Origin: Bacilli bacterium
GTDB taxonomy: Bacteria > Bacillota_I > Bacilli_A > ML615J-28 > CAG-698
Reading direction: 5' to 3'
Assembly (NCBI GenBank): GCA_028702495.1
Contig: JAQVOS010000002.1
Coordinates: forward strand, 39 to 64,038
Length of the DNA: 64,000 bases
The position numbers and the translations under genes were made by a program. How positions within the stretch are numbered: the first letter of the stretch is position 1; each line of letters opens with the position of its first letter. This document shows positions 6,170-59,871 of the stretch, piece after piece. The notes under the pieces were generated by a model. It saw only the letters and a list, made by a program, of their open reading frames with translations, did no database searches and was not told the DNA's origin.

Positions 6170-6177
6170 GGTGCCAC

Positions 6178-13345: not shown

Positions 13346-13354
13346 TCCAAACTC

Positions 13355-15158: not shown

Positions 15159-15220
15159 TCCCCTGTTATATGTTAATTATAGCATATTTCTAGTTAAATA
15201 ACAAGGTAAAATCATCCTGA

Positions 15221-15250
15221 GCACCTATGAAAAAAGACCAACTTTTCAGT
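15221..15250 (-). terminator. Rho-independent terminator after the Big_2-SBP lipoprotein gene
   Basis: Minus-strand RNA GGCCAACU-GAAA-AGUUGGUC followed by UUUUUU. Confidence 0.6.
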
Positions 15251-15270
15251 TGGCCTTTTAGATTCAATTA

Positions 15271-16966: not shown

Positions 16967-17061
16967 ATTTTTTCTTTCCTCCTCGATAATTTTTTGTTAG
17001 TTTGTTTATATACTTTAGGACTTTCTCCTAATAGCCAAATAAAAAATATAACTGAAAATGT

Positions 17062-17090
17062 TTACACAATAATTATACACTATTCGGATT
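17062..17090 (-). promoter_or_regulatory. Sigma-A promoter for the Big_2-SBP lipoprotein gene (-35 TTGCTA, 17-nt spacer, -10 TATAAT) with a ~90-nt leader
   Basis: Minus-strand reading TTGCTAaaaaaatccgaatagtgTATAAT. Confidence 0.55.
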
Positions 17091-17108
17091 TTTTTAGCAA
17101 GCCTTTTT

Positions 17109-18745: not shown

Positions 18746-18748
18746 TTC

Positions 18749-20260
18749 TTACACCTCTAATCGTACCGGTAAACTTCCAGTAAATGTATTATCTTTACAT
18801 TTTTGACAAACAGCTCCTATGCTTTCTTTGGTACAGTCATACGTACATATTAAAGCGCCACTTTTCTTTAAAATCACTCCATCATAAGGCGAGCGCAAAC
18901 ATACAAGAATGACTTTGCTTTTGTCGAGTTGTTCATATAGTTTTGTAAAATAATCTCCTGTTTTGACCTGGTAAGTTGCCAATAGTATTTTATCATATTT
19001 TGTGCACATTTGCACGATGTTTTCTAAATTACCCATTTCCTCATCGATGATCGTTTCAGGATAAGGCAAATGCTTTTTGAATGTTTCATACCCTTCTTCT
19101 TCATTATCTACCAAACTAGCTAAATGAATTTTAGGAAAGAGCATGAGGACAGAATCGTTTTTTTGTAAAGGAAGTAAGCCACAATCATATACCTTTGTGA
19201 TGCTTTTCTCGATAAGTTCATCCGTGTATGGTGCTAAACGATTCAAGGCAAGTTTTCGTGGAACTTTTGTATATTTTTGTTTCAAAGCAATAATCTTTTC
19301 AACTGATTCGTCAAGACGTGATAAAGGAATTTCACCCCTCATTACCAATTGACGAAATGTTTTTATGATGGTTATTTGCTCTTCTAAATCAGCCTTTCCA
19401 CAAAAAACTAAAATATCATTTCCTGCCATAATGCCGTTTTTTACAATCTCTTCAATGGAATAACGTCCCCAAATGGCTGCCATGGTTAGGGAATCCGTGG
19501 TAATGAGGCCTCTAAAACCTAGTTCTTGTTTTAGAAGCTCAGTAATCATCGGATAAGATAAAGAACTGGGGAAAGCAGGATCAATGGCATCATACAAGAT
19601 GTGAGAAATCATGACGCCTTCACACCCCTCGCGGATGGCTTCAATATACGGAACAAGTTCTTCTTGGAAGAGAGTAGCTTTGTCCTTTTTTACAATCGGT
19701 AATCCCAAATGACTATCGACATTGGTATCCCCATGCCCAGGAAAATGTTTAACCATCGGTAAGATCATTGCATCTTGAAAGGCTTTGCTTGCTCTTACCA
19801 CTTGTTCTGCTACTTTTTGGGGATTATCCCCATAACTACGAGAATTAATGACTGGATTTAAAGGATTGGAATTGATGTCAGCTACAGGTGCATAATTAAT
19901 GTGAAATCCTAGTTGCTTTAAATCTTCACCACAAGCTCTCGTAACTGGATAAATATCCTCTCCGGTTGCAGATAAACTCATTGCTCCTGGTAAATAGGTT
20001 ACATCCTCCATCAAACGACGAACCATCCCTCCCTCTTGATCTAAGCTAATAAAGATCGGGTGTTTCGCATGTAGTTGAATATCATCATTTAATTGCTTTA
20101 CTTGTTCATAAGATGTTATGTTATGAGCAAACTCCACCACATTCCCAACGTGATAGTTTTCTATCAGTGTTTTTAATTGATGATTATAGGTCGTTCCACG
20201 AAAAGCAAAACATAACATTTGGCCAATTTTTTCTTCGATGGATAATTGATTTATATTCAT
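18749..20260 (-). CDS. GH3 beta-N-acetylglucosaminidase (second NagZ-like paralog, 503 aa)
   Basis: SLDQEGGMV and KHFPGHGDTNVDSH motifs. No signal peptide. Confidence 0.8.
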   Translation of the reverse strand: MNINQLSIEEKIGQMLCFAFRGTTYNHQLKTLIENYHVGNVVEFAHNITSYEQVKQLNDDIQLHAKHPIFISLDQEGGMVRRLMEDVTYLPGAMSLSATGEDIYPVTRACGEDLKQLGFHINYAPVADINSNPLNPVINSRSYGDNPQKVAEQVVRASKAFQDAMILPMVKHFPGHGDTNVDSHLGLPIVKKDKATLFQEELVPYIEAIREGCEGVMISHILYDAIDPAFPSSLSYPMITELLKQELGFRGLITTDSLTMAAIWGRYSIEEIVKNGIMAGNDILVFCGKADLEEQITIIKTFRQLVMRGEIPLSRLDESVEKIIALKQKYTKVPRKLALNRLAPYTDELIEKSITKVYDCGLLPLQKNDSVLMLFPKIHLASLVDNEEEGYETFKKHLPYPETIIDEEMGNLENIVQMCTKYDKILLATYQVKTGDYFTKLYEQLDKSKVILVCLRSPYDGVILKKSGALICTYDCTKESIGAVCQKCKDNTFTGSLPVRLEV

Positions 20261-28197: not shown

Positions 28198-29142
28198 TTA
28201 TTTCATACCTGAATGAGCCATTGTTTCCATAACTTGAGATTGAGTAATCACAAAGACGGAAATAGGAACTAAAATCATTATTAAACTAACCGCAGCTAAG
28301 GTTCCTTGACGAGCAGGACCAGCTGTTGCAATTTGGGTAATGGCATAACTGACCATTTTTAAATCTTCACGATAAATATATTGTGCCCCTGAAGCAGCCC
28401 ATAAGCTTTGGAATAATAAGATTAAGAGTGTTAACCAAGCGGGTTTAACGATTGGCATAACAATTTTCCACAAAATCTTCATATCGCCTGCTCCATCAAG
28501 TTTCGCTGATTCAATATAATCGGTTGGAACTTGAGTCATGAATTGTCTCATAAGGAAGAGACCAAGGGATGAAGCAATGGAAGGAAGGATGAGGGACCAT
28601 TGAGTATCAATCATTCCCAATACATTAAAGATAAGGTAATGAGGAATCGCAGTAACGCTTCCTGGGAACATTAGGGAATACACAATGATGCCCATGATGA
28701 GGCTTCCACCAGGAATTTTGTATTTTGCTAGGGGGTAAGCACACATGGAGGCAATGATGATATGCCCAAGAGTACCAGCGAAAGTGACAAGAATGGTATT
28801 AAAGAAATAGCGTGAGAAGGGAACTAAAGAATTTCCTAAGGCATTGGCTAAGTCAATAAAGTTCACAAGCGTTGGATTTGCCACCCATAGTCTTGGGGGA
28901 TATAGGAACAATTCATTAAGCGGTTTAAAGGCATTAAAGAATGTTAACAACAAAGGTAGCATACTAAATGAGCCAGCAATCGCTAGGAAGACAAAGAGAG
29001 TAATATCGCCCGCTTTGGAACGGTTCACTCTTTTCTTCTTCTTTGAACGAAGAAGAACGGTATAAGCACCGATTTCCGAGAATGGACGAGAATCAATGCG
29101 ACGAGCTTTAATGGCGTTGTAATCTTTTTCTTTTTTAGCCAT
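28198..29142 (-). CDS. Carbohydrate ABC transporter permease (LplC/YtcP-like)
   Basis: EAA loop ESAKLDGAGDMKILWKIVMP and 6 TM segments. Confidence 0.8.
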   Translation of the reverse strand: MAKKEKDYNAIKARRIDSRPFSEIGAYTVLLRSKKKKRVNRSKAGDITLFVFLAIAGSFSMLPLLLTFFNAFKPLNELFLYPPRLWVANPTLVNFIDLANALGNSLVPFSRYFFNTILVTFAGTLGHIIIASMCAYPLAKYKIPGGSLIMGIIVYSLMFPGSVTAIPHYLIFNVLGMIDTQWSLILPSIASSLGLFLMRQFMTQVPTDYIESAKLDGAGDMKILWKIVMPIVKPAWLTLLILLFQSLWAASGAQYIYREDLKMVSYAITQIATAGPARQGTLAAVSLIMILVPISVFVITQSQVMETMAHSGMK

Positions 29143-29144
29143 TA

Positions 29145-30131
29145 TTAGTTACCTACCCTTCTAATCATACGACGAATCAGTTTATTGAGTCCTATGGATG
29201 CTAGGAAGAGGAGCGTTGCAATTGCCGATGCATAACCCATTTCATATCGAATTCCCCCGTAGTCAGATAAGTGGTTCACGATGGTGTGAGCCGCATAGGA
29301 TACAGAGGGGAACCCAGCAAGGGCAGTGGTGATTCCACCAATCCCAAGCGTTCCAGAAATTTGCATAACGGCACTGAATATCAATTGTGGTTTCATTGAT
29401 GGAAGAGTTATATACCATAATTCTTGCCAACGATTACGAATGCCATCAAGAGCTCCAGCTTCATATAATTCTTTATTCACTGATTTTAAACCAGCAACGA
29501 GGGATAAGAACCCTACGCCCAAACTCATCCACAATTGAACGACGATGACAATGGGGAGAATATAGGTCGTGTTGGTTAACCATGTTTGTGGTTCAGTGAT
29601 AAAGCCCCATTCCAAGAGAAAGGCATTGGCATACCCATAAATATCACTTGAAAAAATGAGGGTCCAAATGACAAGAGCATTGGCAGATAATGAAGGGGCA
29701 TAGAAAGCAAGTGTAACAATGGAACGAAGTTTTCCAGGGAGTTCATTAATCAACCAAGCAATCACGAAAGCAGCAACATACCCAATCGGGCCAGTGATGA
29801 CTGCTAATATCAATGTGTTTTTAATTGCAATGATGAAAATTTCATCATCAAGGAATAAGGTAAGATAATTGGTCCATCCAATGAATTTAGGGGCTTCTAA
29901 AATATTATAGGATGTGAAACTCAATGCTAAACTCATGAGGACAGGGATTACTGTGAATGTTACGAAGAGGATTAAATAGGGAAGCATCATGAGGTAAAGT
30001 GTACGGTTTAAGTACATTTTACGACGAACAGGTCCACCTTTTTTACTCCATGCTTCAGCTTTTTCACCCATACGACGCCACCATTGACGAAAAGAGGTCA
30101 AGGCATTTTTCTTTTCAATTGATTGTTGCAT
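29145..30131 (-). CDS. Carbohydrate ABC transporter permease (LplB-like)
   Basis: EAA loop YEAGALDGIRNRWQELWYITLP. Confidence 0.8.
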   Translation of the reverse strand: MQQSIEKKNALTSFRQWWRRMGEKAEAWSKKGGPVRRKMYLNRTLYLMMLPYLILFVTFTVIPVLMSLALSFTSYNILEAPKFIGWTNYLTLFLDDEIFIIAIKNTLILAVITGPIGYVAAFVIAWLINELPGKLRSIVTLAFYAPSLSANALVIWTLIFSSDIYGYANAFLLEWGFITEPQTWLTNTTYILPIVIVVQLWMSLGVGFLSLVAGLKSVNKELYEAGALDGIRNRWQELWYITLPSMKPQLIFSAVMQISGTLGIGGITTALAGFPSVSYAAHTIVNHLSDYGGIRYEMGYASAIATLLFLASIGLNKLIRRMIRRVGN

Positions 30132-30142
30132 CTTAATCCTCC

Positions 30143-33118
30143 TTATTCATCCGATCCAACAGGTAGACCGAATTCTTCACGTTTACGGGTAATTTCATTA
30201 TTGATGGTTTGAATGTATTGTTCAAAGGTGTTACGTGGATTGTAATTGTTATTCACAACTTCACGGAAGGCATTTTCAAGATTTCTTCCTGTATAGTATC
30301 CACCAGCAATTTCAGGAACACCAACGGTTACTTCCCATTGCGAAAGCAAGATTTGTTGTTCTTCAATTGTCCATGCAAGCCGTGTGAATGCTTCCACATT
30401 CGCGGTTGGATGACGAGCTGCTGATCCTAAAATTGCTTCTACTTCACGAGCATAACTGGTTTGTGTATCGGTAGATATCCACCATTTCATAAACTTCCAA
30501 GCCGCTTCTGGATTGTCGGTGTCATTCATCATGACTACGGATGTCCCGCTAGCAGCACCTGAATGGTCAATGGTGTTATCATCTTGACGAGTTCCAGGTA
30601 ATAGTGCAAAAGCCCAACGTCCTTTAATTTCAGGAGCAGATACGGCAAGCGTGTTATATAAGTCGTAGTTGGCAATACCAATTGGCATTTCACCACTTCG
30701 AAAGCGGTTAATGAAGGTTGCTCCAGTAATGGTCAGTGAGAAGCTATGATTTGTATAGAAGTCACACCACCACTCAAAGGCAGACATGGCTTCTTCACTA
30801 TCAAAATTCGATTCGATGTATTCTTCGCCTTGATTGTTTAAGGCATTTCGATAGAAGGACCCGCCTGTTTGATAGAGACGAGAAGCAAATACTTGGTTCA
30901 CGACACTACTTGCTCCCACAGTATTAAGGGGTAGATAGAATTTTAAGTTTTGAATTTGCAATTCAGAAATAAGATTGATCACATCGACCCAAGTTTCTGG
31001 AACATCCCAGTTTTGAGCTTCAAAAATGTCCGTGCGATAGAAAAGCATCAAGAAACTTTGCGTATTGGGAAGACCATAATAACCACCTTGGAATTCATAA
31101 GGGGTCATTGAACTTGGTGCAAACTGTGCGACAACCTCTTCAAAATCTTCAAATGTAGATAGATCATAGGTTGCACCTCGGAGCGCATAATTGACAGGGA
31201 GTCCATTGGCTGCATTGATGGCAATGTCTGGACCTTTCCCGGCAAGGGTTGCTGTCAAGAGAACATCCGGAGATACAATTTTTAAGGTAATGTTTAAATC
31301 TTCTCCAAAATCAGAATCGATGAGGGTACGAATCGCGTTGGCTTGTTCACGACCAGCCATTTCAGAAGTCAATAACCACACTTCGATATTCTCTGCATTT
31401 TCTTTAGCAACGGTGGTTCCGATAGACTCGTAATCAAAGGTAAAGGATTGAATAAATGCTTTTATATTAAACCAAGATCCAATAAAGAAATTGGGGTTGG
31501 CACGTGGTAAATCATAATCATCGCTATGAACAATTAGGTAATCAACCACTAAAGATTGACGTGATACGGTTAAAATCCAAGTACCTAGGGATGAAATATT
31601 GGTACTGAATGTTCCGAGATTTTGTTGAATCAAACGTGGTTTTTTAATGAATTTTCCAAGTTGCAACATAATGGTTTGAAGGGAAGCGGTTTCACTACTC
31701 TTTTCACCACTAATGGAGTTGATGGTATCAGCGACATCGGAAAGTTCTTCAAGAGCATTTTGAAAAGTAGTAATTAGATTTGGAATTTTTGTCGTTAATT
31801 GATAATCCTGATATTTATCTGGATTAATACCTGTTTTTGCGATAATCCTACGATACATATCATTCAAATTGTCAATGACATTTTGTACACGAGCGATTTG
31901 TGCTCCGTAATCTCCTAAAGTGGCTTCCAAAGTAATTTGATGAGTACCTTCGGTTAAATAGAAATAGAAAGGTTTATCTTCAGTTCCTAAAGTCACCATG
32001 CTGAAATCAGAAGTATAAATGAATTTCGCATTTTGAGCTTCAGCGAAAGGAACTTCACCATCAACATATACCGCCCGGGTTGAGAACAATCCACGAGAAG
32101 TGCTTTGTTTTGCCCGAAGAGTGATGTTGTATAATCCACTTTGAGGGACAGTAAATTCCCAAGTAATCCAATCTCCAGGAGTGATCCATTTTGAACCACC
32201 AATGGAGTTAAGAATAATCTTAACGGGATCCGCCGGAGAGTTATAAGCGCTGGAACGATCGGAAGTGGCATAAATGGTGGGTGAAGAACGATAAATGGCA
32301 TTCTCACCTTCGATGAAATCTGTTCCGCTATCACTTGAAGCAGCGATTTCACCAGTCACTTTGTCGTATCCTTTGGTTTCATATTCAGCTTCTACTTCAG
32401 CATAAGTCTTAAAGACTTGTTTGCTGATGATGTGAACAGCAAAAATGCTCATTGCTTCACGAAGTGATTTAAATGTGAGGGTATTAATACCACTGCTAAA
32501 ATAAACTAGATAAGGCTCACTCACATAACCTACTTCATCTTTTACATAACTTGAACGTTTCACTGGTATTTCAATTTGACGAGGACGAATTTGATTTCCT
32601 GTGATATCAGTAATGATTTCACCACCATCGCCCCATACACGTTTAAAAGCTACGTTTTCTAAATCTTGGTAAGGAATCGAACCATTCACATAAATGGTGC
32701 GTTCAATATTTGCTCCACCATCAATTTCAGGAATGTAGTCCACTTTAATGTTATAGAAGCCAGCTGTTGGTACATTAAAACTCCAAGTAGCTGATCCTGA
32801 AGAGGTGGTTTCAAGAGCAAGAGGGGTAGCAGGATAGCTCGCGCTATAATCCTTCACATTAAAATCACCTGTTGCATCTCCTGGCTGTAAAACAATGTCC
32901 ACATTGTTTGGAGTTAGGGCATCGGGATGTTCTTCTATGTAGTTGTTATAAGGTCCGCTAACAATAACGGGTTCAGAAATGGTCGAACGAGAATAGGCAT
33001 GGTCATATCCATAACTATCAACGATAATGAAAAGTAAGAGTGAGACCAACCCGACGAGTAATAACCAAAGGACAACTTTTTTAACTAGTTTCCCTGTAAT
33101 CATGAATTGCTTATTCAT
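30143..33118 (-). CDS. Membrane-anchored extracytoplasmic protein (991 aa). Two tandem ~170-aa carbohydrate-binding-module-like repeats are fused to a C-terminal ~480-aa family-1 sugar-binding protein domain (LplA/YtcQ-like)
   Basis: N-terminal TM VVLWLLLVGLVSLLLFIIV. Internal repeat (YNIKVDYIPEIDGGANIERTIYVNGSIPYQDLENVAFKRVW and YNITLRAKQSTSRGLFSTRAVYVDGEVPFAEAQNAKF). SBP hallmarks in the C-terminal half (ITLKIVSPD...GKGPDI...YYGLPNTQSFLMLFYRTDIFEAQNWDVPETW). Confidence 0.65.
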   Translation of the reverse strand: MNKQFMITGKLVKKVVLWLLLVGLVSLLLFIIVDSYGYDHAYSRSTISEPVIVSGPYNNYIEEHPDALTPNNVDIVLQPGDATGDFNVKDYSASYPATPLALETTSSGSATWSFNVPTAGFYNIKVDYIPEIDGGANIERTIYVNGSIPYQDLENVAFKRVWGDGGEIITDITGNQIRPRQIEIPVKRSSYVKDEVGYVSEPYLVYFSSGINTLTFKSLREAMSIFAVHIISKQVFKTYAEVEAEYETKGYDKVTGEIAASSDSGTDFIEGENAIYRSSPTIYATSDRSSAYNSPADPVKIILNSIGGSKWITPGDWITWEFTVPQSGLYNITLRAKQSTSRGLFSTRAVYVDGEVPFAEAQNAKFIYTSDFSMVTLGTEDKPFYFYLTEGTHQITLEATLGDYGAQIARVQNVIDNLNDMYRRIIAKTGINPDKYQDYQLTTKIPNLITTFQNALEELSDVADTINSISGEKSSETASLQTIMLQLGKFIKKPRLIQQNLGTFSTNISSLGTWILTVSRQSLVVDYLIVHSDDYDLPRANPNFFIGSWFNIKAFIQSFTFDYESIGTTVAKENAENIEVWLLTSEMAGREQANAIRTLIDSDFGEDLNITLKIVSPDVLLTATLAGKGPDIAINAANGLPVNYALRGATYDLSTFEDFEEVVAQFAPSSMTPYEFQGGYYGLPNTQSFLMLFYRTDIFEAQNWDVPETWVDVINLISELQIQNLKFYLPLNTVGASSVVNQVFASRLYQTGGSFYRNALNNQGEEYIESNFDSEEAMSAFEWWCDFYTNHSFSLTITGATFINRFRSGEMPIGIANYDLYNTLAVSAPEIKGRWAFALLPGTRQDDNTIDHSGAASGTSVVMMNDTDNPEAAWKFMKWWISTDTQTSYAREVEAILGSAARHPTANVEAFTRLAWTIEEQQILLSQWEVTVGVPEIAGGYYTGRNLENAFREVVNNNYNPRNTFEQYIQTINNEITRKREEFGLPVGSDE

Positions 33119-34943
33119 AGATTCCTCCTTGCAATATGGTTGTAAATTGGATAAGTGTTTTAATATACTGGATGCTCTTATTTAAGCCGCTTCTTTTATT
33201 GCGAGCCATCCAAAGAGTTTTGAGTCCTTCAATCAATGGTTGTTCCATGGCAATCACGTCCCCAAGCAGTGCTTTACGAGCGGCGAGCGTCAATTCTTGA
33301 TTCATTGATTGATTGATTTTTAGTAATGTTTCTACAAACGAAATTGAGTGTTTAATTTCTTCTTTCACAAGAGGTTCAACTGCAGCAAGTTCTAATTCTT
33401 TGCGTTTTTGTTGGAAGAACCCAGTTAGTATTGTATATTTTTTTGTTGATAAGATTTTATCTTGGGTCTTTAATTTAAAATAAGCAATAGGATCTTTTTC
33501 TTTCATAGCATAGGTTGCCCATAATAAAATATGGAAGGCGTGAGTACCGTTATCAACAAAATTGTTTTCTAGTTGATGATAAGTTCCTAAATTGAGCAAG
33601 CAGTCAGCAATGATATTTTCTTTGTCATGGAAAACATAACGATTGACAAAGTGCTTCAAATCACGATAGACACCAGGGGTGACGCGATAGCTCATGAGGC
33701 CTGCATATGCAAGGGGAACTAGACTAATTGGCAAGAATTGAAGATGTCCAAAGTCTCCCCAATCAGTGAGTAACAGTCCTTTTCCATGATAAGCTTTTAC
33801 ATAGATACAAGCATTGGAAATGGTTTCAAGAGCATCCCAAGTCCGTCCTAAGAAACTACACCAGCTGGCTGTTCCAGGAGCGGCCATGAAAGGAATGTTG
33901 GCATCACTTAAGACTTTCAGATGGCGATCGTAAGGATAAGTCGCATCATATCCCCAATCGACAAATATCATATCTTTGGGAAGTCGAGAGAGAGCATCAT
34001 CATGACGAATGAGAACATCCCCCCAAATAAGGGGTGTTTTTCCATATTTCTTGATTTCATCATAAGCTTTTAAAGTGTAATCAATGTATACATTGGCAAG
34101 ACCTTTGGTCTCAACTTCTGCTTTACTACGTCCACGACCCAATTCAAAGGGTTCATCAAAATTCATATTAAAATAGGGGGATTTTGAATAGGGCAACATG
34201 TCCTGATACATTTTTTGGATGAGTTCAAATGAACGTGGATCCAAAGGATTCAAGGTAGAAGGAGCACGATGTGTTCCCCACAAGAAAATTCCTTCAGGAG
34301 CTTCCGCTAAATCTTTTAACTCATCATGACTTAACCAGTCAGCCATGTGCCCAAATCCATTCTGATTCGGTACTAAATCAATAAAGCGATCCATGGCATA
34401 GGTTTCTAGTTCTTGATATTCTAAAACGCTAATGAATGATTCAGCTTCAAGATATTGAGGAAACGATTTGTACTCAAATGAAAAGCCTTCAACATATAGT
34501 TCAAAGTGATTCATTTTAAGAAGACTCATTAGATCTAATACTTGTTTAATAGTCGAAACTGTTGGAACTTTATTCCGACTAATATCCATCATATAACCAC
34601 GAATGGGAAGATCGGGTTCATCAAAAATGCTGACACACTCCATTAATGGCGATAACATTTGTTTTAGAGTTATAACGGCATAGAAAAAACCAACTGTTTT
34701 ACTTGCATAAACCAGAATGGCATTTTCTTGTACCTCGATCTCATAGGATTCGGGTCTTAAATCTAATTTGTTATAAAAGCGAAGGGAACTATCTTCTTCA
34801 CACCCTAAAGAAAAAGGGGCATCAGTGTTTAGTTCGCGAAAAACACGTTCATCGAATGATTCGAAATAAGCGATTTGCTTTTCCAACCGGAATTGACCAG
34901 CATGGGCAATGTTCTTTTTAGGGCGTGGAAAAATTTTATACAT
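33111..34943 (-). CDS. Cytoplasmic GH20-family beta-N-acetylhexosaminidase. The start is at the ATG at 34941-34943
   Basis: GH20 catalytic-domain features (IRGYMMDISRNKVP, HFELYVEGFSFEY, and the D-E pair in FDEPFE). No signal peptide. GGGAG RBS. 8-nt overlap with the downstream SBP-fusion gene. Confidence 0.65.
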   Translation of the reverse strand: MYKIFPRPKKNIAHAGQFRLEKQIAYFESFDERVFRELNTDAPFSLGCEEDSSLRFYNKLDLRPESYEIEVQENAILVYASKTVGFFYAVITLKQMLSPLMECVSIFDEPDLPIRGYMMDISRNKVPTVSTIKQVLDLMSLLKMNHFELYVEGFSFEYKSFPQYLEAESFISVLEYQELETYAMDRFIDLVPNQNGFGHMADWLSHDELKDLAEAPEGIFLWGTHRAPSTLNPLDPRSFELIQKMYQDMLPYSKSPYFNMNFDEPFELGRGRSKAEVETKGLANVYIDYTLKAYDEIKKYGKTPLIWGDVLIRHDDALSRLPKDMIFVDWGYDATYPYDRHLKVLSDANIPFMAAPGTASWCSFLGRTWDALETISNACIYVKAYHGKGLLLTDWGDFGHLQFLPISLVPLAYAGLMSYRVTPGVYRDLKHFVNRYVFHDKENIIADCLLNLGTYHQLENNFVDNGTHAFHILLWATYAMKEKDPIAYFKLKTQDKILSTKKYTILTGFFQQKRKELELAAVEPLVKEEIKHSISFVETLLKINQSMNQELTLAARKALLGDVIAMEQPLIEGLKTLWMARNKRSGLNKSIQYIKTLIQFTTILQGGIYE

Positions 34944-34980
34944 AGGAACTCCCATCAATAAATGAAATTCAGTATAGACA

Positions 34981-35070: not shown

Positions 35071-35111
35071 GGTAAAAAAAGACATGAACTGATATATTAT
35101 CAGTTCATGTC
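35071..35111 (-). terminator. Rho-independent terminator after queH
   Basis: Perfect 14-bp stem gacatgaactgata / tatcagttcatgtc, followed on the minus strand by a U7 run. Confidence 0.7.
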
Positions 35112-35728: not shown

Positions 35729-37033
35729 CTATTTGGGTGAAACATCGTGCGTCCACATCGTTTTTAATATTTTTCTTGCTTCCACTTGAGCAGGAATCGT
35801 CATTTTTACGAAGTCTCGATATGTGAAAAAGATGGTTCCAGAAATATGTGGGAATTTTGAATTATATTTCAATTGATTAGGAACTTCTTCAGGATTGCTC
35901 CAATTTCCTTGATCGCTATAGCGATAAAAACCTTGACCAATATAAAGTTTGGTATTGGTTTTTTCACACATATCGGTCCACCAGTCAACCAAATCAGCAT
36001 ATTTAACACGTTCGACTTCACTACCATCTTCTTTGGAAACGACATAGTTATCAAAGTTGAAGTAAACTTGAGGAACCACATAATCGCACCAACCATTCTT
36101 CATCCATAAAACGACATCAGCAAATAAGCCTTCATATCCTTGATAGCATGAATAATGATTATTTGATCCTCCAACCCATCCCCCTTGTTTTCCATTCTTT
36201 TCGAATTGTGTGGTATTGGTACGATAGATTCCAAAAGGACTAATACCAAATTCAACATGTTTTGGAAGGGCTTTTAATTGTTTGGCAATACGTTCCATGA
36301 GGTCAGTCACATTTTGACGTCTAAAATCAGCAAGCGATAATTCAGGGTAACGAGCTTGATGTTTTTCCTCTTCATGAGGGTCAATGATGGCTTCATAAGG
36401 ATAGAAGTAATCATCGATGTGAACCGCTTTAACATCATAATTGGCAGCAATTTCAGTGGCGGTATTGGCAACAAACTCTTGAACAAGGAGACTAGCAGGA
36501 TCTAAAATCAACATAGATTCAGCTGTTTCAATCACACATTCCGGATGACGACGAGCCCAATTTTTTGGACTCAAACTAGCAAGCATGGTTGCTTTATCTT
36601 TACCAAGATCACTCATTTTCGCTTTCGTCACACGATATGGATTAATCCAAGCATGAACCTCAATGGATTCCTTTTTGGCTTCTTCGATGAACCATCCTAA
36701 GACATCAAAACCAGGATAACGATCTTCTTCCCCTGTAATAAAGCGACTCCATGGATTTTCTTGTGATTGATAGAAAGCATCATTGGTGGGGCGAACTTGG
36801 AAAACAATGGTATTCATGTGATACTCTTTCACAGTTTGAATGACAGATCTTAAATAAGTTTGGAAGCTTTCAACATCCTTCATGACTTCAAAATCAATGT
36901 TCGCAACCGTTGAAAACCACACTCCACGTGTTTCTTCTTTTTTCTCAACAAATTCTTCTGGAATTTCAACGAGGACATCACTATCAAAATAGTTGACATA
37001 TCCTCCACGAATGAAACGATTAATCTTCTTCAT
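35729..37033 (-). CDS. DUF187 / glycoside-hydrolase-like family 10 (YngK-like) protein, cytoplasmic. The start is at the ATG at 37031-37033
   Basis: N-terminal RGVWFSTVANIDF motif typical of DUF187/GHL10. GGAGG RBS before the internal ATG. No signal peptide. Confidence 0.6.
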   Translation of the reverse strand: MKKINRFIRGGYVNYFDSDVLVEIPEEFVEKKEETRGVWFSTVANIDFEVMKDVESFQTYLRSVIQTVKEYHMNTIVFQVRPTNDAFYQSQENPWSRFITGEEDRYPGFDVLGWFIEEAKKESIEVHAWINPYRVTKAKMSDLGKDKATMLASLSPKNWARRHPECVIETAESMLILDPASLLVQEFVANTATEIAANYDVKAVHIDDYFYPYEAIIDPHEEEKHQARYPELSLADFRRQNVTDLMERIAKQLKALPKHVEFGISPFGIYRTNTTQFEKNGKQGGWVGGSNNHYSCYQGYEGLFADVVLWMKNGWCDYVVPQVYFNFDNYVVSKEDGSEVERVKYADLVDWWTDMCEKTNTKLYIGQGFYRYSDQGNWSNPEEVPNQLKYNSKFPHISGTIFFTYRDFVKMTIPAQVEARKILKTMWTHDVSPK

Positions 37034-37967
37034 ATAATTCCTCCAATACGGTAATGGTTTGGTTGTTAGCATCTAGAGACACTTCTAAACCAATCGGAAG
37101 ATTGATAAAGGGAAATTCGTGTCCTGAGGCAAAGTGGGATAAAACTGGTTTCCCTAACGGGGCTAAAAATTCGTAAAAGAGCAGATCGAGCGTCTTATTG
37201 CTCGCGGCATCGCTAGTACAATCTGTCATATGGCCAATGATGAATCCTTTGGCTTCTTGGAGGCGACCTGATAGTCTGAGTTGGGTGAGCATCCGATCAA
37301 TCCGATAAGGAGCTTCATTCACTTCTTCAATAAAGACGATGTGATTACGAAAAGGAATTTCATAAGGTGTTCCGACTAAATGAGCAATTAAACTCAAATT
37401 ACCTCCAACAAGGATACCTTTTGCTACCCCTTCTACCATGGTAGTGACCATTGTTGTGATCGTTGTGGTTGCTGGGGAAGAAAGAATGCGTCCCTTCATC
37501 GGCTGCGTTAGTGCGGTATGAAAATCTTGTAAAGAAAATTGATCTTGAAAGGGAGATCCTACAAAGATTCCAACTTGACCATGTAAGGTAGGAAGTGCGG
37601 CTTTGGTATAAAAATTATTGAGTAAGACTGTAATATCGCTGAATCCTAAAAATAACTTAGGATGATTTTTAATGATGGAATAATCTATTCGGTCGACAAA
37701 GCGGCTGGTTCCATATCCACCCTTTAAACATAGGATGGCATCAATGGAAGGATCTAAAAACATCGCTTCAAGATCGTGTCGCCTTTCATCATCGGTTCCT
37801 GCAAGATACCCATCTTCTTGATAACAAGAAGCGCCATATCGGAAATGAAATCCCCAAGAGGTTAGGATTTCCTCCATTTTAGGAAGACGAGTACTCTTCA
37901 TATCTGCTTTAGAAGCAGGACAGATGATACCGATGGTCGATCCTGGTTTTAATGATTTGACTTTCAT
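37020..37967 (-). CDS. ldcA: LD-carboxypeptidase (muramoyltetrapeptide carboxypeptidase, peptidase S66)
   Basis: S66 features: nucleophile-Ser motif LFLGFSDITVL, and the catalytic-triad His (GFIIGHMT) and Glu (IVFIEEVNE) regions. Confidence 0.8.
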   Translation of the reverse strand: MKVKSLKPGSTIGIICPASKADMKSTRLPKMEEILTSWGFHFRYGASCYQEDGYLAGTDDERRHDLEAMFLDPSIDAILCLKGGYGTSRFVDRIDYSIIKNHPKLFLGFSDITVLLNNFYTKAALPTLHGQVGIFVGSPFQDQFSLQDFHTALTQPMKGRILSSPATTTITTMVTTMVEGVAKGILVGGNLSLIAHLVGTPYEIPFRNHIVFIEEVNEAPYRIDRMLTQLRLSGRLQEAKGFIIGHMTDCTSDAASNKTLDLLFYEFLAPLGKPVLSHFASGHEFPFINLPIGLEVSLDANNQTITVLEELYEED

Positions 37968-37970
37968 AGA

Positions 37971-38942
37971 TTATGCCAATTCTTTACGCATAATGGCAAA
38001 AGATTGACGAACTTTAAATCCAGCATATAAATAGATGTTACGAGCAGGATTGTCTGAACCTGTGAAAAGACTCATAAAAGATGCTCCATTTTTTCGTGAT
38101 TCGTAACATAAGTGGCAGAACAATGACTTTCCAAGTCCCAATCCTTGCGTTTCGGGATGTACCCCAATGCCGGCAAAATACCCTCGACCACTATCTTGAG
38201 TAAACATTGGGCCAGTCCAACCGAGAATGGTTCCATCTTTCTCAGCAATCAACATCGGAGCTGGATTTTCTTTTGCAAGGTTACTCTTAACGGCATCATG
38301 CCATCCTGGATTTTTCAAAGCTTCAAATAATTCAGGGAAGCCATGATGCTTTGCTTCATTATAAATGGTAATGTAATAATTATTCTTTTCGTTTTCAATT
38401 TCCTTCGCAATGACTTTTGCTGGAATTTCATATTGACGAATATCAAGATAATAGCCATCAAGTTGACCATTGGTATTATAGCCATTGGCTAATAGGAGAA
38501 AGTAATATGGTGTGTTGTAAGCAACTGCAGGAGCACCTGGATGATCTGCTTTGTTTGTATCAGGAATATACCATTCAAGATTAATCGGAGAACCAAAATA
38601 CAACCGAACAAGGGTCTTTTTCTTGCTCTTCAGATAAGCTTCGAGCAGAGCAAGAATTTTCGTTCCATATCCTTGGCGTTGATAGGAGCGCTCAATGGCA
38701 ATACAGGTAATGAAGCCTGGAGCGGCTTCATTTTGATTAACAATGGCATGTCCAAAACCAATGAGTTCTTCGCCTTCATAGGCTAACATGAAGCCTTCGG
38801 GATCAAAGCAAGGATTGGTTACAAATTTACTATGAAATGATTCGCAAGTAAACGGTTTATAAATCGAGTAGGGAACGACCGATGTGTTCCACAGTTCAAC
38901 AATGGCAGGAATATTGTTTTCTTCGAATTTTTCTATAATCAT
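37971..38942 (-). CDS. Tandem-GNAT N-acetyltransferase (323 aa), paralog of the 17109..18026 gene
   Basis: GNAT motif A (RQGYGTKILALLE in domain 1, QGLGLGKSLF in domain 2). N-terminal region similar to the other tandem-GNAT. Confidence 0.65.
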   Translation of the reverse strand: MIIEKFEENNIPAIVELWNTSVVPYSIYKPFTCESFHSKFVTNPCFDPEGFMLAYEGEELIGFGHAIVNQNEAAPGFITCIAIERSYQRQGYGTKILALLEAYLKSKKKTLVRLYFGSPINLEWYIPDTNKADHPGAPAVAYNTPYYFLLLANGYNTNGQLDGYYLDIRQYEIPAKVIAKEIENEKNNYYITIYNEAKHHGFPELFEALKNPGWHDAVKSNLAKENPAPMLIAEKDGTILGWTGPMFTQDSGRGYFAGIGVHPETQGLGLGKSLFCHLCYESRKNGASFMSLFTGSDNPARNIYLYAGFKVRQSFAIMRKELA

Positions 38943-38952: not shown

Positions 38953-39990
38953 CTAAATGTGACTCATGATATAATTGCCTAAGCGACCGCGAAAGGCAAT
39001 GATTTTAATGTTTTCGCGTGTGGGGTGTACCCGGTTTGTAAGCATGCAAAAAGCAACCTGGTTGGTGCGATCGATGAAAATATGAGTTCCTGTAAACCCA
39101 GTATGCATGATGGTTTCAGGACTAACCAAATCACCAGAACAAGGATAATCTCCTTTGATGAGCCAACCCAATCCACGACGATTGAGAGCTTTTGCGATTC
39201 CATTGGGTTCTTCTACTTGAACGGTATACAGTAAATTAATGGTTTGAGGACTGAAAATTCGTTTTCCACGATAAAGTCCTTGATTTAATATCATCTCCAT
39301 AAAATGAGAAATATCTTCAACTGTTGAGAATAATCCCGCATGACCCGCAACTCCTCCTAATGTATGAGCTGCTTCATCGTGAACATAACCTCGGTCAATT
39401 TTATCACCACGATCCTCTGTCGGTGCGCAACGAGCAACATCCGTCGGATTATAAGTGGTATCCTTCATCTCAAGGGGATCAAATATTTGTTCTTTGGCAA
39501 ATTGAGCGAGTGACTTACCACTAATCGCTTCAACAATCCATCCCAAAAGAATAAATCCTAAATCAGAATACACAATTTTAGTGTTCTTTTCGTATTTCAT
39601 ATCCACTTTTTGAATCAAAGTGATGAGTTCTTCCTTGGTTTTATACAAAGAACGAGAGATGAGGGGGGGGAGTCCAGACGTATGCGTCATGAGATCCCAA
39701 ATGGTGACGTTGGTTTTTTCAAAAAATGGTAAATAGGTAGAAACACTATCAAAGAGGCGCAGACGTCCTGCTTCCAAGAGTTTCATAATACAAGAGGTGG
39801 TTGAGACAACTTTAGAGCAAGAAGCCATGTCATATAAAGTTGAAAGATCATTGGCTTCATAAGCGGGATACAAAGCTTTGGCCCCAAAAGATCCAAAGGT
39901 TGTTTTTCCTTTAATGATAAGAGCGAAGTTTGCTCCTGGAAAGACACCCTCCGCTATGGCCTGTTCAATCAGGCGATTCATTCCATCCAT
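38953..39990 (-). CDS. Serine hydrolase of the beta-lactamase / PBP-like family (candidate AmiE-like N-acetylmuramyl-L-alanine amidase or D-aminopeptidase), cytoplasmic
   Basis: SxxK active-site motif (MASCSKVVS), YSD-like region and the KTG-like box HTGFTGT. No signal peptide. Confidence 0.65.
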   Translation of the reverse strand: MDGMNRLIEQAIAEGVFPGANFALIIKGKTTFGSFGAKALYPAYEANDLSTLYDMASCSKVVSTTSCIMKLLEAGRLRLFDSVSTYLPFFEKTNVTIWDLMTHTSGLPPLISRSLYKTKEELITLIQKVDMKYEKNTKIVYSDLGFILLGWIVEAISGKSLAQFAKEQIFDPLEMKDTTYNPTDVARCAPTEDRGDKIDRGYVHDEAAHTLGGVAGHAGLFSTVEDISHFMEMILNQGLYRGKRIFSPQTINLLYTVQVEEPNGIAKALNRRGLGWLIKGDYPCSGDLVSPETIMHTGFTGTHIFIDRTNQVAFCMLTNRVHPTRENIKIIAFRGRLGNYIMSHI

Positions 39991-39991: not shown

Positions 39992-42184
39992 TTAAGAACT
40001 CCTTAAGGTAATTTTTTGGTGAAAACGACAATAAAAATTGAGATAACACAATTTATCAATCTCGATTTCTGTATAACCACGTTGTTTTAACCCTTCTGCG
40101 ATTTTATAAACTTTGGTGGTATTATCAACATCGATGAGATTGCTATTCGGGAATTCCGATAAATAATCCATAAAGTCAAACCCGAAGCATACATGGTCAA
40201 CATCCATAATCGAAACGGCATAATCAACATGATTGAGGAAATGCTCCAAATCTTGCTCTTCCTTATTGGAAGAAACAAAATTATTCGCAAGAGTAAGGCC
40301 CATTAGCCCATCCGCTCTACGAAGAGCTCGCATTTGATCATCGGTGAGATTACGAACATGGTTACACAAAGACTTAACATTCCCATGGGAATTGATGATG
40401 TTTTTCTGAGTCATCGCTAAAACATCATAGAAACTCTTTTCGTTTAAATGAGCCAAATCGATGATCATATCGAGTGCTTCCATGCGACGAATGAGTTGTT
40501 TTCCTTCTTCATGAAGTCCATGAGATGGATTTGCTTTTGCCCCAGTGGCATATTTGTTTTCTTCATTCCAGGTTAACATCGCATGGCGAAAACCCATTTT
40601 GTATAGAACGTCGATGTCTTCTACTTTTTTAAGATTACGAAGACCTTCTAATCCTAAAATCACTTCAAATTCAGGAAGAAGTTTTAGATTGATTTCTTTC
40701 ATGGCTCGCTCACATGCTTCGATTAAATCAAAGTCATCTGGGGAATACATCGTCCAAATGGAAGCTTTGACGTTAGATGATACGAGTTGAGGAACATGGA
40801 ATGAAGCAAAATGATTGTGATTGTTTGCGAGTGCTTTTTGATTCAAATCATAGAGCATATCACTGTGAATATCAAAAAAGCGTTGATTGGTAAAGACATA
40901 GTTTTTCACAAGATCCTCCATACTTTCACGATGAACGGCGACATGAATGGTGCTATCGCGAACAAAAATGACTTCACTCTTTGTGGCTCCATTATAATTG
41001 GAAGCCATCGAATGACCATAAGCACCTGTGGAATATACAACCAATGTGTCATTAGTTTCTGGTAGTCCCAAGAGGGTATTAGTAACGACAATATCGCCCG
41101 ATTCGCAACATTTACCAACCACATCTACGGTTTCAGTTTTGTCTAGATACGGACGATTGGCAATATCCACGGTATATTTGGCTTTATAGAGGGCGGGTCG
41201 AATGTTATCAGTCATTCCACCATCGACAAATACATATGTTTTCCCATTAAAAATCTTTTTAACCGAGCCAACTGTGTATAAAGTAAGTCCCGCATCCCCC
41301 ACAATGCTTCGTCCTGGTTCAAGCATCACTGTTTCAAGTGTTAGCCCACGGGCAACAACTTCTTCTTGAAGCTTTGTAATCATTGCTTGTAAAAGGGAAG
41401 GAAGATCAATTTCATGATCTGAATCAAGATATTGAATCCCGAACCCACCCCCAAGATTGAGGGTTGTTGCATGAAAACCCGTTAAGCCCCTCACGTGAGC
41501 GATAAACTCTAACAAAGTTTCAATTTCCTTGAGGAAAGCTTCTTCGGTATGAATGTTCGACCCGATGTGAGCGTGGAATCCTTCAAATTTTAAGTAGGGA
41601 GAGATTTCACAAATTTTTACAACCTTCATCATAGTTTCATCATCAAAGATGGATTCTCCAAATTTCGAATACATTTTTGAGGTTTGAATGTATTCGTGAG
41701 TATGCGCTTCAATTCCTGGATTGACACGCAGCAAAATTCGTTGCTCTATTTTCATTTCTTCGGTAAGATTCTTTAAGAGGAGCAACTCTTGAACATGATC
41801 AACCACAATCAAACCAACTCGATTTTCAAGAGCAAACACCAGTTCATCACGCGATTTATTGTTTCCATGAAGAACAACTTGCTCCATGGGGAACCCTGCA
41901 CGCTTCATAAGATACATGTCTCCCAAACTAACAGAATCGAGGTAACACCCTAATTCATGCATCAATGTACAAATATAGGGGGCTATAAAGGCTTTTGATG
42001 CATATACAATATGGGTTTTAAATTGATTGCTTTGGAAATGGGTTTTAAAGGTTGTAACTTTATCGCGAATTTGATTTTCATCATAAACATATAGAGGAGT
42101 CTTATAGACTTTTGCAAGACTTGATAGGAAAAATTTTCCGATGATAAGTTCATTATTTTGAATGGTCATTGATGTTGTCTTCAT
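39992..42184 (-). CDS. Fusion protein (730 aa). An N-terminal diaminopimelate decarboxylase (LysA, PLP fold-III) is joined to a C-terminal M19 (renal/membrane-dipeptidase family) zinc dipeptidase
   Basis: LysA motifs: PLP-Lys VYASKAF, GGGFGI, EPGRSIVGDAG and CESGD. M19 motifs in the last ~300 aa: DIHSD, LTWNEEN, IIDLAHL, NSHGN and CFGFDFMD. Confidence 0.75.
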   Translation of the reverse strand: MKTTSMTIQNNELIIGKFFLSSLAKVYKTPLYVYDENQIRDKVTTFKTHFQSNQFKTHIVYASKAFIAPYICTLMHELGCYLDSVSLGDMYLMKRAGFPMEQVVLHGNNKSRDELVFALENRVGLIVVDHVQELLLLKNLTEEMKIEQRILLRVNPGIEAHTHEYIQTSKMYSKFGESIFDDETMMKVVKICEISPYLKFEGFHAHIGSNIHTEEAFLKEIETLLEFIAHVRGLTGFHATTLNLGGGFGIQYLDSDHEIDLPSLLQAMITKLQEEVVARGLTLETVMLEPGRSIVGDAGLTLYTVGSVKKIFNGKTYVFVDGGMTDNIRPALYKAKYTVDIANRPYLDKTETVDVVGKCCESGDIVVTNTLLGLPETNDTLVVYSTGAYGHSMASNYNGATKSEVIFVRDSTIHVAVHRESMEDLVKNYVFTNQRFFDIHSDMLYDLNQKALANNHNHFASFHVPQLVSSNVKASIWTMYSPDDFDLIEACERAMKEINLKLLPEFEVILGLEGLRNLKKVEDIDVLYKMGFRHAMLTWNEENKYATGAKANPSHGLHEEGKQLIRRMEALDMIIDLAHLNEKSFYDVLAMTQKNIINSHGNVKSLCNHVRNLTDDQMRALRRADGLMGLTLANNFVSSNKEEQDLEHFLNHVDYAVSIMDVDHVCFGFDFMDYLSEFPNSNLIDVDNTTKVYKIAEGLKQRGYTEIEIDKLCYLNFYCRFHQKITLRSS

Positions 42185-42220
42185 ATTTTGCTCCGTTCAT
42201 GTCAGTTTATTATAACATAG

Positions 42221-43198
42221 TTACAAAAGATTGTTAATGTCTTGATACAAATTACCTTCAACTATTTTTAAGAAGGCATCAAGTGTGGTCACGGTTGTTA
42301 AAGCATTTTTAAACGCTTTGGCATGAGGAAATCCTTTGACGTACCATCCAGCTAAGGAACGCATCTCTAGAATGGCAATTTTTTCATTTTTTAAATGAAT
42401 GAGTTGATATAGATGATAAAGCATCATATCAAGGCGTTCGGAAAGGGTAGGAGGAGTGTAGGGAAGTTCGCGAAGAGCATGATCCACTTCAGCGATCACC
42501 CAAGGATTTCCTAAAGTAGCACGACCAATCATGATGGCATCGGCTTGTGTATATTGCAACATCCTAAGGGCATCATTCGCATTTTTGATATCGCCATTCG
42601 CAATGACAGGGATGGAAACGACTTCTTTGACGCGTTTGATGTAATCCAAATTAACGCTTCCTTTATAGAGGTCACTTTTTGTACGACCATGGATGGTAAT
42701 GGCAGATGCTCCCGCTTTCTCGATGGCTTTCGCAATGACATCACAATTAATCTCATCATGGGTCCAGCCAGCGCGAATCTTGACGGTGACAGGAAGATTT
42801 GTATGACTCACCACGGCACGTGTGATGTCATAAACAGCACCTGGATCTTTTAGTAGAAACGAACCGCTGTTCTGTTTCATGACTTTTCGCACCGGACATC
42901 CCATATTAATGTCAATGAGATCAGCATGAGTGCGACGCGTCACCTCTTCCGCTGCTTTTGCCATTTCTTCAGGATCACTTCCAAATAATTGTAATCCAAT
43001 AGGATGCTCAAGAGGATCAACATCAGTCATCTCCCACGTTTTATCATTTTCGTAAAGTAGGCCTTTGGCACTAATCATCTCACTATATACCAAAGAAGCT
43101 CCCATCTTTTTCGCAATCAAGCGATAGACTTGGTTGGTGTAGCCAGCGAGGGGAGCGAGAATAACTTGACCTTGTAAGGTAATGGATCCAATTTTCAT
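42221..43198 (-). CDS. dusB: tRNA-dihydrouridine synthase (DusB-like). Start at the ATG at 43196-43198 (the track ORF starts at an upstream GTG)
   Basis: Dus family motifs LAPLAGYTN, DINMGCP, VTVKIRAGW and IHGRT. Confidence 0.8.
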   Translation of the reverse strand: MKIGSITLQGQVILAPLAGYTNQVYRLIAKKMGASLVYSEMISAKGLLYENDKTWEMTDVDPLEHPIGLQLFGSDPEEMAKAAEEVTRRTHADLIDINMGCPVRKVMKQNSGSFLLKDPGAVYDITRAVVSHTNLPVTVKIRAGWTHDEINCDVIAKAIEKAGASAITIHGRTKSDLYKGSVNLDYIKRVKEVVSIPVIANGDIKNANDALRMLQYTQADAIMIGRATLGNPWVIAEVDHALRELPYTPPTLSERLDMMLYHLYQLIHLKNEKIAILEMRSLAGWYVKGFPHAKAFKNALTTVTTLDAFLKIVEGNLYQDINNLL

Positions 43199-43253
43199 TT
43201 TGTTTACCACATTTTCTATGCATTATTTTATCATATTTTACGTCTTTATTCAA

Positions 43254-53566: not shown

Positions 53567-53589
53567 TATTAACATTGGAGGAATTATAT

Positions 53590-59792: not shown

Positions 59793-59811
59793 ATTTTTCT
59801 CCAATATGACT

Positions 59812-59840: not shown

Positions 59841-59871
59841 TTTCAATTATTTATTCATATTTTGACTACTT

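Follow-up and report, generated by a model that had tools for sequence, protein, structure and literature searches.

A diaminopimelate decarboxylase fused to an M19 dipeptidase at the head of a putative stem-peptide-breakdown operon of Bacilli

Introduction

Peptidoglycan stem peptides are catabolized to free diaminopimelate (DAP) in Escherichia coli by LdcA, MpaA, YcjG, and PepD and in Bacillus subtilis by YkfABCD (PMC2954226). These known pathways need an epimerase of the YcjG/YkfB type to handle L-Ala-D-Glu (PMC2954226). For the recycling of N-acetylmuramic acid (MurNAc) the operon murQ-murR-murP-amiE-nagZ-namZ of B. subtilis has been described (PMC8054146, PMC5061867). E. coli has murQ-murP-yfeW, with the gene for PBP4B/YfeW beside the sugar genes. 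This analysis concerns a gene from a Bacilli bacterium (GenBank assembly GCA_028702495.1, contig JAQVOS010000002.1) that encodes in one polypeptide a DAP decarboxylase (LysA) followed by an M19 dipeptidase. The gene occupies exactly positions 39992..42184 of the minus strand of a 64-kb stretch (64,000 nucleotides, positions 39 to 64,038 of the contig), which is referred to as the window. An earlier note on this DNA had pointed out the fusion and had suggested that it forms a channel, in which the M19 half releases meso-DAP from scavenged stem peptides and the LysA half converts it directly to L-lysine.

As in the stem-peptide pathways of E. coli and B. subtilis, the cluster to which the fusion gene belongs encodes a peptidase of the S66 family, a putative carboxypeptidase, and processing in the cytoplasm would be expected to yield free DAP. 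It differs in that neither an MpaA/YkfC-type endopeptidase nor a YcjG/YkfB epimerase was found in the window and in that LysA is physically attached. With the MurNAc recycling operons the surrounding island has in common MurQ, a NagZ-like glycoside hydrolase of family 3 (GH3), and NamZ, and, as in the case of E. coli PBP4B/YfeW, a beta-lactamase-fold protein is encoded together with sugar genes. In contrast to these operons, the island has ATP-binding cassette (ABC) transporters rather than uptake via a phosphotransferase system and contains in addition genes for AnmK, a GH3-MupG fusion, GH18, GH20, and GHL10. Because the lineages that carry the fusion are partly wall-less, the pathway would be one of scavenging and not of recycling the cell's own wall.

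Monofunctional LysA (TIGR01048; structures from Mycobacterium tuberculosis, 1hkv, Methanocaldococcus jannaschii, 1twi, and Corynebacterium glutamicum, 5x7m) shares with the fusion protein the full fold-type III decarboxylase and all signature and substrate residues. The fusion protein differs by its C-terminal M19 domain and by the location of its gene in a peptidoglycan-catabolic operon instead of a biosynthetic context. LysA generally tolerates N- or C-terminal partners from related metabolism. For example, an exhaustive search of 1.84 billion representatives clustered at 50% identity yielded a C39-like peptidase-LysA (P0213, 636 amino acids, peptidase N-terminal), a LysA-DapF (P0206, 757 amino acids), and a LysA-GNAT (P0234, 626 amino acids), and an aspartokinase-LysA is represented by NF006515. 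Here, however, the partner is a catabolic metallo-dipeptidase. The earlier note knew of no LysA-dipeptidase fusion, and none was found in the searched literature, in which nothing specific on peptidoglycan catabolism or lysine biosynthesis in Acholeplasma turned up either. New are the M19 enzyme as a partner of LysA, the leading position of the gene in a peptidoglycan-catabolic operon, and its confinement to Bacilli that are wall-poor or wall-less; already known are both domain families and, from E. coli and B. subtilis, stem-peptide catabolism yielding DAP.

Two Complete Domains in One Polypeptide

The open reading frame (ORF) is single, starts with ATG, and encodes 730 amino acids. Its translation contains all motifs that had been quoted for it before (VYASKAF, GGGFGI, EPGRSIVG, CESGD, DIHSD, LTWNEEN, DLAHL, and NSHGN), and it is matched by the Pfam families Orn_Arg_deC_N, Orn_DAP_Arg_deC (residues 32–387), and Peptidase_M19 (residues 505–718). 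The junction between the two domains, which contains a T6 run, is in frame throughout (...RESMEDLVKNYVFTNQRFFDIHSD...), and the linker of approximately 6 residues varies in length among homologues.

The N-terminal half is a complete LysA-type decarboxylase. It scores 412.7 bits with the NCBIfam equivalog model TIGR01048 (curated cutoff 297.9), and the models for DokD, FslC, and the exosortase-associated decarboxylase all remain far under their cutoffs. The best sequence matches in the PDB are all LysA (E = 1e-73). The structure model of this half superposes on 1twi, 5x7n, 1hkw, and 2qgh with template modelling (TM) scores of 0.89–0.92 (normalised by target length) and has the alanine-racemase-like barrel and the beta-sheet domain of solved LysA. 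The signature motifs of LysA are present: the Lys of YASKAF, the His of HIGS, the GGG phosphate loop, EPGR, and the Tyr of GAY. In an alignment of 34 fusion proteins, which are 49–76% identical and to which all statements on conservation refer, K64 (the lysine that binds pyridoxal 5'-phosphate, PLP), H206, G245-247, E289-P-G-R292, R329, Y333, C360, E361, and Y389 are invariant and S362 is nearly so. The LysA blocks, including R292, R329, Y333, and C360-E361-S362, are in register with LysA from M. tuberculosis and C. glutamicum. In published LysA structures the counterparts of R292, R329, and Y333 (the latter two being the Arg and Tyr of RPALY) and of C360-E361-S362 (CES, contributed by the partner subunit) contact the distal L-centre of DAP. 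Since these residues are conserved, the predicted substrate is most likely free meso-DAP and not peptide-bound DAP. That the N-terminal half could group with ornithine or arginine decarboxylases, a possibility raised with the first description, or be a D-Orn/D-Lys decarboxylase is ruled out by the family scores, the PDB matches, and the residue alignment.

The C-terminal half is likewise a complete domain. PF01244 scores 204.3 bits (cutoff 26) with only profile positions 104–314 aligned, and an alignment by sequence of residues 435–505, the first approximately 70 of the domain, to any solved M19 enzyme failed. A truncated M19 domain, as these two results might indicate, is ruled out by a domain-only AlphaFold model and a fold search. 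The model (predicted local distance difference test, pLDDT, 92.4; predicted TM score, pTM, 0.91) has eight strand-helix units forming a complete (beta/alpha)8 barrel. The 20 best fold matches in the PDB are all M19 enzymes (TM 0.79–0.85, normalised by query length), including Lmo2462, GliJ, Rsp0802, Sco3058, and DPEP1 (TM 0.85, root-mean-square deviation 2.7 Å).

Invariant in the M19 half are D438, H440, D442, E513, H579, H600, R611, and D670. The metal ligands of DPEP1 are His20, Asp22, Glu125, His198, and His219 (PMC9305348), to the last three of which E513, H579, and H600 correspond. E513, H579, H600, R611, and D670, the last being the catalytic Asp that follows strand 8, align by sequence to GliJ (HVRN versus HARN; GFDFMD versus GSDFDG). 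H440 and D442, which lie in the segment that could not be aligned by sequence, were assigned via the invariant DxHxD at the end of strand 1 of the model, so that all five metal ligands are invariant. R611 is the Arg of the HxRN block, which presumably binds the C-terminal carboxylate of the substrate, and its conservation in register with the corresponding Arg of GliJ fits a dipeptidase-type substrate of the predicted enzyme. The equivalent of DPEP1 His152 (LTH motif) is missing; in its position, where both DPEP1 and GliJ have His, there is an invariant W539. Inactivity of the M19 half for this reason is ruled out, since Lmo2462, whose crystal structure contains Zn and a dipeptide mimic, likewise has LTWN (LTWNNAN). 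W539 therefore marks a subfamily rather than an inactivated site.

With the solved M19 dipeptidases Lmo2462 (3neh/3lu2), Rsp0802 (3ly0), Sco3058 (3id7), GliJ (5lwz), and human DPEP1 (1itq) the M19 half thus shares the barrel, the bridging Glu, the two downstream His ligands, the Arg, the catalytic Asp, and the DxHxD motif. It differs from them by a compact and divergent N-terminal third, by the invariant block TWNE-x-N (TWNEEN in the window), and by being fused to LysA. Judged by conserved residues and models, both halves look catalytically competent. Two loci from Clostridia, L075 (Oscillospiraceae) and L079 (Anaerotignum), also have tandem duplicated M19 genes of the same RHAM[LV]TWN/GFDFMDY subtype (both at ~10000-12200), and these are not part of a cluster of the Acholeplasmatales type.

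Distribution and Origin of the Fusion

The identical 730-amino acid ORF with identical neighbours is found in the independent assemblies of runs SRR22315505 and SRR22315503. Of 5.8 billion proteins searched, the 120 best clusters were examined, and 114 of these have all three Pfam domains, nearly all with a length of 725–744 amino acids and 49–76% identity. Entries that bear a name are called only "diaminopimelate decarboxylase" and derive from metagenome-assembled genomes of Bacilli or Acholeplasmataceae. In a survey of contigs from one genome per species, 247 relatives were found and the best 80 loci compared. The fusion is present in at least 43 of these 80, labelled, among others, Acholeplasmataceae, Acholeplasmatales, Acholeplasma sp., Mollicutes, Tenericutes, Bacilli, and "Coprobacillus sp. 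CAG:698". In the exhaustive search mentioned above the whole family is covered by one representative (P0019), the remaining top matches being stand-alone LysA or stand-alone M19 proteins. Since all fusions fall within one cluster at 50% identity, the fusion is, by this measure, of single origin and restricted to one clade.

Besides the fusion, two other arrangements exist. In 16 loci, from more distant relatives, the M19 gene occurs alone in a cluster of the type beta-lactamase-fold protein-GNAT-PIG-L-M19-GHL10-GHL10-GH20-solute-binding protein, and lysA was not seen in the stretch examined; one of these loci is labelled Erysipelotrichaceae, most others Bacilli or Firmicutes. In a related arrangement, Haploplasma modicum ATCC 29102, a cultured and wall-less organism, has a stand-alone M19 gene together with genes for MurQ, a BadF-type kinase, GH20, PIG-L, and a double GNAT. 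In sister lineages lysA and the M19 gene are both present, next to each other but separate: they are 2–12 nt apart in four loci on independent contigs (L081-L084) and overlap by 13 nt in a fifth (L027). In a further locus (L033) three small genes stand between them within the same cluster, and here the end of the stand-alone LysA and the start of the stand-alone M19 enzyme both fall exactly at the linker of the fusion. The spacer in L033 (9591-11108) encodes a lipoprotein-like ORF, a LytTR DNA-binding protein, and a small membrane protein and may be an inserted regulatory module. From the three arrangements and the boundaries in L033 it follows that the M19 gene is the older member of the cluster, beside which lysA was recruited before the two genes fused, an order read from comparison of the loci.

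The natural split pairs indicate that covalent linkage is unnecessary for the partnership. The model of the full-length fusion protein has a pTM of only 0.63 versus 0.91 for the M19 domain alone, which suggests that the relative placement of the domains is uncertain. Together, the split pairs and the model argue against an obligatory channel between the two halves, and the channel proposed at first thus finds no support.

The Operon and the Surrounding Island

The features of the locus are listed in Table 1. The gene for the beta-lactamase-fold protein follows immediately downstream of the fusion gene and that for the S66 peptidase two genes downstream, as had been seen before. The order Dus-[LysA-M19]-beta-lactamase-fold protein-double GNAT-(PIG-L)-S66-GHL10-(QueH)-GH20-large solute-binding protein is kept in essentially all of the ~43 fusion loci, and in all fusion loci with contigs long enough to include it the beta-lactamase-fold gene adjoins the M19 gene or domain. 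The fusion gene has its own GGAG ribosome-binding site. The TTAACA-17-TATAAT upstream of it is the top-scoring promoter-like site of the region, although the scan for promoters and terminators is suggestive only, its total site counts being equal to those of shuffled controls. The beta-lactamase-fold gene starts 1 nt past the stop codon of the fusion gene, and its AAGGAG ribosome-binding site lies within the last codons of the latter, which suggests translational coupling. Riboswitches, other regulatory RNAs, and tRNAs were not found in the window.

Table 1. Features of the fusion locus and of the surrounding window (positions in the window).
Feature	Position	Strand	Basis
lysA-M19 fusion gene, 730 amino acids plus stop	39992..42184	-	ORF, Pfam/NCBIfam, homologous clusters, second assembly
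LysA domain (residues 1-428), fold-type III PLP-dependent, predicted meso-DAP decarboxylase	40901..42184	-	TIGR01048, PDB, TM, invariant residues
Inter-domain linker, about residues 429-434	40883..40900	-	Alignment and in-frame read-through
M19 domain (residues 435-730), predicted renal-dipeptidase-type binuclear metallo-dipeptidase	39995..40882	-	PF01244, model, fold matches
Promoter-like TTAACA-17-TATAAT, extended -10, then GGAG ribosome-binding site	42209..42237	-	Site scan and direct reading
Dus (tRNA modification)	42221-43210	-	Pfam
Beta-lactamase-fold serine hydrolase, cytoplasmic, PBP4B/YfeW-like	38953..39990	-	PF00144, 197.7 bits
Two-domain GNAT acetyltransferase	37971..38942	-	Pfam; syntenic in most loci
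S66 peptidase (LD-carboxypeptidase/MccF family)	37020..37967	-	PF02016, PF17676
GHL10 putative glycoside hydrolase	35729..37072	-	PF02638; syntenic
QueH (tRNA modification)	35105-35704	-	Pfam
Terminator-like hairpin after queH, 14-bp stem and T-run; probable operon end	35081..35111	-	Site scan
GH20 hexosaminidase, 991-amino acid solute-binding protein, two ABC permeases; syntenic uptake/deglycosylation module	28198..34958	-	Pfam, synteny
MurQ, AnmK, BadF-type kinase, GH3-MupG fusion, NamZ, second double GNAT, NagB, GH3	7805..20260	-	Pfam
Giant surface/secreted protein with Big_2, Amidase_2, and lamin-tail domains	53575-57111	+	Pfam
Giant surface/secreted protein with Big_2 and CHAP domains	57156-59846	-	Pfam

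Judged by its genes, the whole window is a peptidoglycan-catabolism island. MurQ, AnmK, NamZ, MupG, the NagZ-type GH3, and NagB, all identified by Pfam, are encoded on one strand within 7.8–20.3 kb, and the remainder of the window is almost wholly on the strand of the fusion gene. Further genes are those for GH18, a DUF5696 protein, and two sugar-type ABC systems. Such genes are established parts of MurNAc/peptidoglycan recycling (PMC8054146, PMC5061867) and are joined here by genes for lytic enzymes. The surroundings thus lend good support to the murein salvage that had been suggested for the fusion, the island extending over the window and the operon being kept in more than 40 species.

Several observations on the neighbours may be added. 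Most fusion loci include Dus, and about a dozen include QueH; a functional reason for this is not obvious. The window encodes two paralogous two-domain GNATs of MshD-like architecture, the one of the operon and a second at 17109-18026 (-). In relatives a PIG-L deacetylase (PF02585) is encoded beside the GNAT and M19 genes (L050:10881-11573, L004:14264-14953, L033:6574-7275, L065:9228-9911), and it is absent from the corresponding position in the window. The trio of M19, PIG-L, and double GNAT is kept even in the wall-less H. modicum; re-acetylation of de-N-acetylated muropeptides or D-amino acid handling are possibilities for its role. A second unusual bifunctional enzyme of the island is an 872-amino acid protein consisting of a NagZ-like GH3 and a complete MupG 6-phospho-N-acetylmuramidase (10727-13345, -). 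At 3585-6966 (-), close downstream of MurQ/AnmK and after a small alpha/beta hydrolase, a FAD-linked oxidase resembling D-lactate dehydrogenase is encoded together with the alpha and beta subunits of an electron-transferring flavoprotein, plausibly a sink for the D-lactate that MurQ would release. The relatives of this organism are for the most part wall-less; its giant Amidase_2 and CHAP proteins are candidates for lytic enzymes that act outside the cell.

Proposed Function

The fusion protein is probably a cytoplasmic bifunctional enzyme, whose gene opens a conserved operon for the breakdown of stem peptides inside a larger island for the use of cell-wall fragments, in which meso-DAP would be converted to lysine. 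The steps could be as follows. Secreted Amidase_2, CHAP, GH18, and other hydrolases would break up the cell walls of other bacteria, or the cell's own wall if present, and the muropeptides would be imported through the ABC systems. Their sugars would then be consumed by GH20, GH3, NamZ, MupG, AnmK, MurQ, and NagB, and the beta-lactamase-fold hydrolase and the S66 peptidase would release the stem peptide and shorten it. The M19 half would cut an L-Xaa-D-Xaa bond bearing a free alpha-carboxylate, and finally the LysA half would decarboxylate the D-centre of free meso-DAP to yield L-lysine, the supply of which may be the purpose of the route.

For the M19 half, L-Ala-D-Glu is the favoured bond, either as the dipeptide or N-terminal in L-Ala-gamma-D-Glu-mDAP; mDAP-D-Ala is the alternative and would make the two halves strictly sequential. 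L-Ala-D-Glu is preferred because the cluster includes the M19 gene also in many loci whose examined stretch showed no lysA, because an L-Ala-D/L-Glu epimerase (YcjG/YkfB, enolase superfamily) had no Pfam match among the ORFs of the window, and because the characterised bacterial M19 enzymes, for example Sco3058, reportedly prefer L-Xaa-D-Xaa dipeptides, in work attributed to Cummings et al. in 2010. The M19 half could thus be a functional replacement for the route via epimerase and PepD, cutting L-Ala-D-Glu directly. The earlier proposal that it is the M19 half that releases meso-DAP is not supported, since the occurrence of M19 in many clusters in which lysA was not seen means that its primary substrate need not contain DAP.

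It should be noted, however, that several findings weigh against this proposed function. Among the ORFs of the window Pfam revealed no gamma-D-Glu-mDAP endopeptidase (M14 MpaA or NlpC/P60 YkfC) except for the secreted CHAP protein; without an MpaA/YkfC-type enzyme in the window the gamma-D-Glu-mDAP bond is the main gap in the scheme. The transporters of the window are sugar-type ABC systems and not Opp/Dpp peptide systems. The beta-lactamase-fold protein scores 172.8 bits with NF002968 (PBP4B), which is under the cutoff of 385, and a close characterised structure was not found for it, so that its identification as AmiE or PBP4B is unjustified. The S66 protein, in which the Ser/Glu/His triad positions are conserved, is by sequence as near to MccF as to LdcA, with MccF being the closest in the PDB (1e-38 versus 1e-31 to 1e-23 for LdcA), it reaches 141 with the LdcA equivalog model (cutoff 378), and 12 fusion loci lack its gene in the cluster. 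Finally, the conserved trio of M19, PIG-L, and double GNAT could point to a non-peptidoglycan amide as substrate.

Amid the transporter genes of the island there are genes for the 1049-amino acid DUF5696 protein and for two proteins of 650 and 439 amino acids without significant family match (22414-25563, 26235-28187, and 50517-51836, all -). The missing gamma-D-Glu-mDAP-cleaving activity could be among them.

Alternative Explanations

A strict sequential coupling, in which the M19 half frees meso-DAP, e.g., from mDAP-D-Ala, and passes it directly and possibly by channelling to the fused LysA site, is unlikely but is the most serious rival. In its favour are the classic rationale of a fusion, by which one domain supplies the substrate of the other, the shortness of the linker, and the fact that mDAP-D-Ala is a genuine dipeptide of the L-Xaa-D-Xaa type. 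Moreover, in the 12 fusion loci whose cluster lacks the S66 gene, D-Ala may have to be removed by another enzyme. However, the M19 gene is a core member of the cluster in the 16 loci in which lysA was not seen, the pair exists as two separate genes in sister lineages, and an endopeptidase generating mDAP-D-Ala was not found in the window. The relative placement of the domains in the full-length model is, as mentioned, uncertain. LysA is a homodimer. So is the M19 enzyme DPEP1 (PMC9305348), and with both partners dimeric the geometry of the fused protein is uncertain, too.

The LysA half could also simply be the last enzyme of ordinary DAP/lysine biosynthesis, fused to a general dipeptidase without meaning for a pathway. 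Its canonical equivalog character and the other LysA fusions described above (LysA-DapF, C39-like peptidase-LysA, LysA-GNAT, and aspartokinase-LysA) would allow this. Yet dap, asd, and lysC genes were not found among the Pfam-scanned ORFs of the window, the same peptidoglycan-catabolic operon surrounds the fusion in ~43 species, lysA is still near the M19 gene of that cluster where the two are split, and the lineages concerned have been described as dependent on salvage. We therefore consider this explanation quite improbable.

There is an even slimmer chance that the core cluster (M19, PIG-L, double GNAT, GHL10, GH20, and solute-binding protein) degrades another GlcNAc-containing glycoconjugate (for example, chitin oligomers, host glycans, or a thiol or amino-sugar conjugate), with M19 cutting a non-murein amide and lysA recruited for other reasons. 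Indeed, GH18, GH20, GHL10, and PIG-L are not specific for peptidoglycan, the transporters are of the sugar type, GliJ, one of the solved M19 enzymes, is a Cys-Gly dipeptidase, and the pairing of PIG-L with a double GNAT recalls thiol-conjugate metabolism. But meso-DAP, the only known substrate of LysA, is a metabolite of peptidoglycan or of the DAP pathway, the operon contains the S66 peptidase and the beta-lactamase-fold protein, and the same island has unambiguous MurNAc genes (MurQ, AnmK, NamZ, and MupG) together with the Amidase_2 and CHAP proteins; in H. modicum, too, MurQ is encoded near the M19 gene.

That a sequencing or assembly frameshift joined two genes, for which the T6 run at the junction and the genuine split versions in relatives could be cited, can be dismissed, since two independent runs yield the identical ORF and the fusion is in frame in more than 110 clusters (the 114 counted above) and at least 43 species, with residues conserved on both sides of the junction.

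Implications for the Carrier Organisms

Acholeplasmatales and neighbouring orders are predicted to rely on salvage, with a possible need for scavenged muropeptides (PMC10868615), and incomplete synthesis of the m-DAP type has been reported for them (PMC10868615; PMC7301438). Among the organisms that rapidly assimilated 13C-labelled biomass of dead E. coli in a stable-isotope probing study, Acholeplasma predominated (PMC4628116). The carriers of the fusion are not uniformly wall-less. A tentative, more far-reaching interpretation, which we regard as possible rather than probable, is that in bacteria related to Acholeplasmatales that had lost wall and DAP pathway, lysA was the only DAP gene to survive and that it was first relocated to the peptide end of a wall-digesting operon and later fused there. 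Lysine would then be obtained from the DAP-type peptidoglycan of other bacteria, and LysA-M19 would be the terminal, possibly channelling module of a necromass-feeding or predatory nutrition.

Hundreds of database entries named only "diaminopimelate decarboxylase" are two-domain, predicted bifunctional proteins. If the proposed function is correct, it would provide a testable link from peptidoglycan scavenging to amino acid supply in wall-poor Bacilli with reduced genomes (Acholeplasmatales and neighbouring uncultured orders), which occur abundantly in guts and anaerobic digesters. A route via an M19 dipeptidase would be added to the known catabolic pathways of stem peptides, and the gene could serve as a marker by which cell-wall eaters are recognised in metagenomes. 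And the proposed function would explain why a DAP-specific enzyme is retained by wall-less bacteria.

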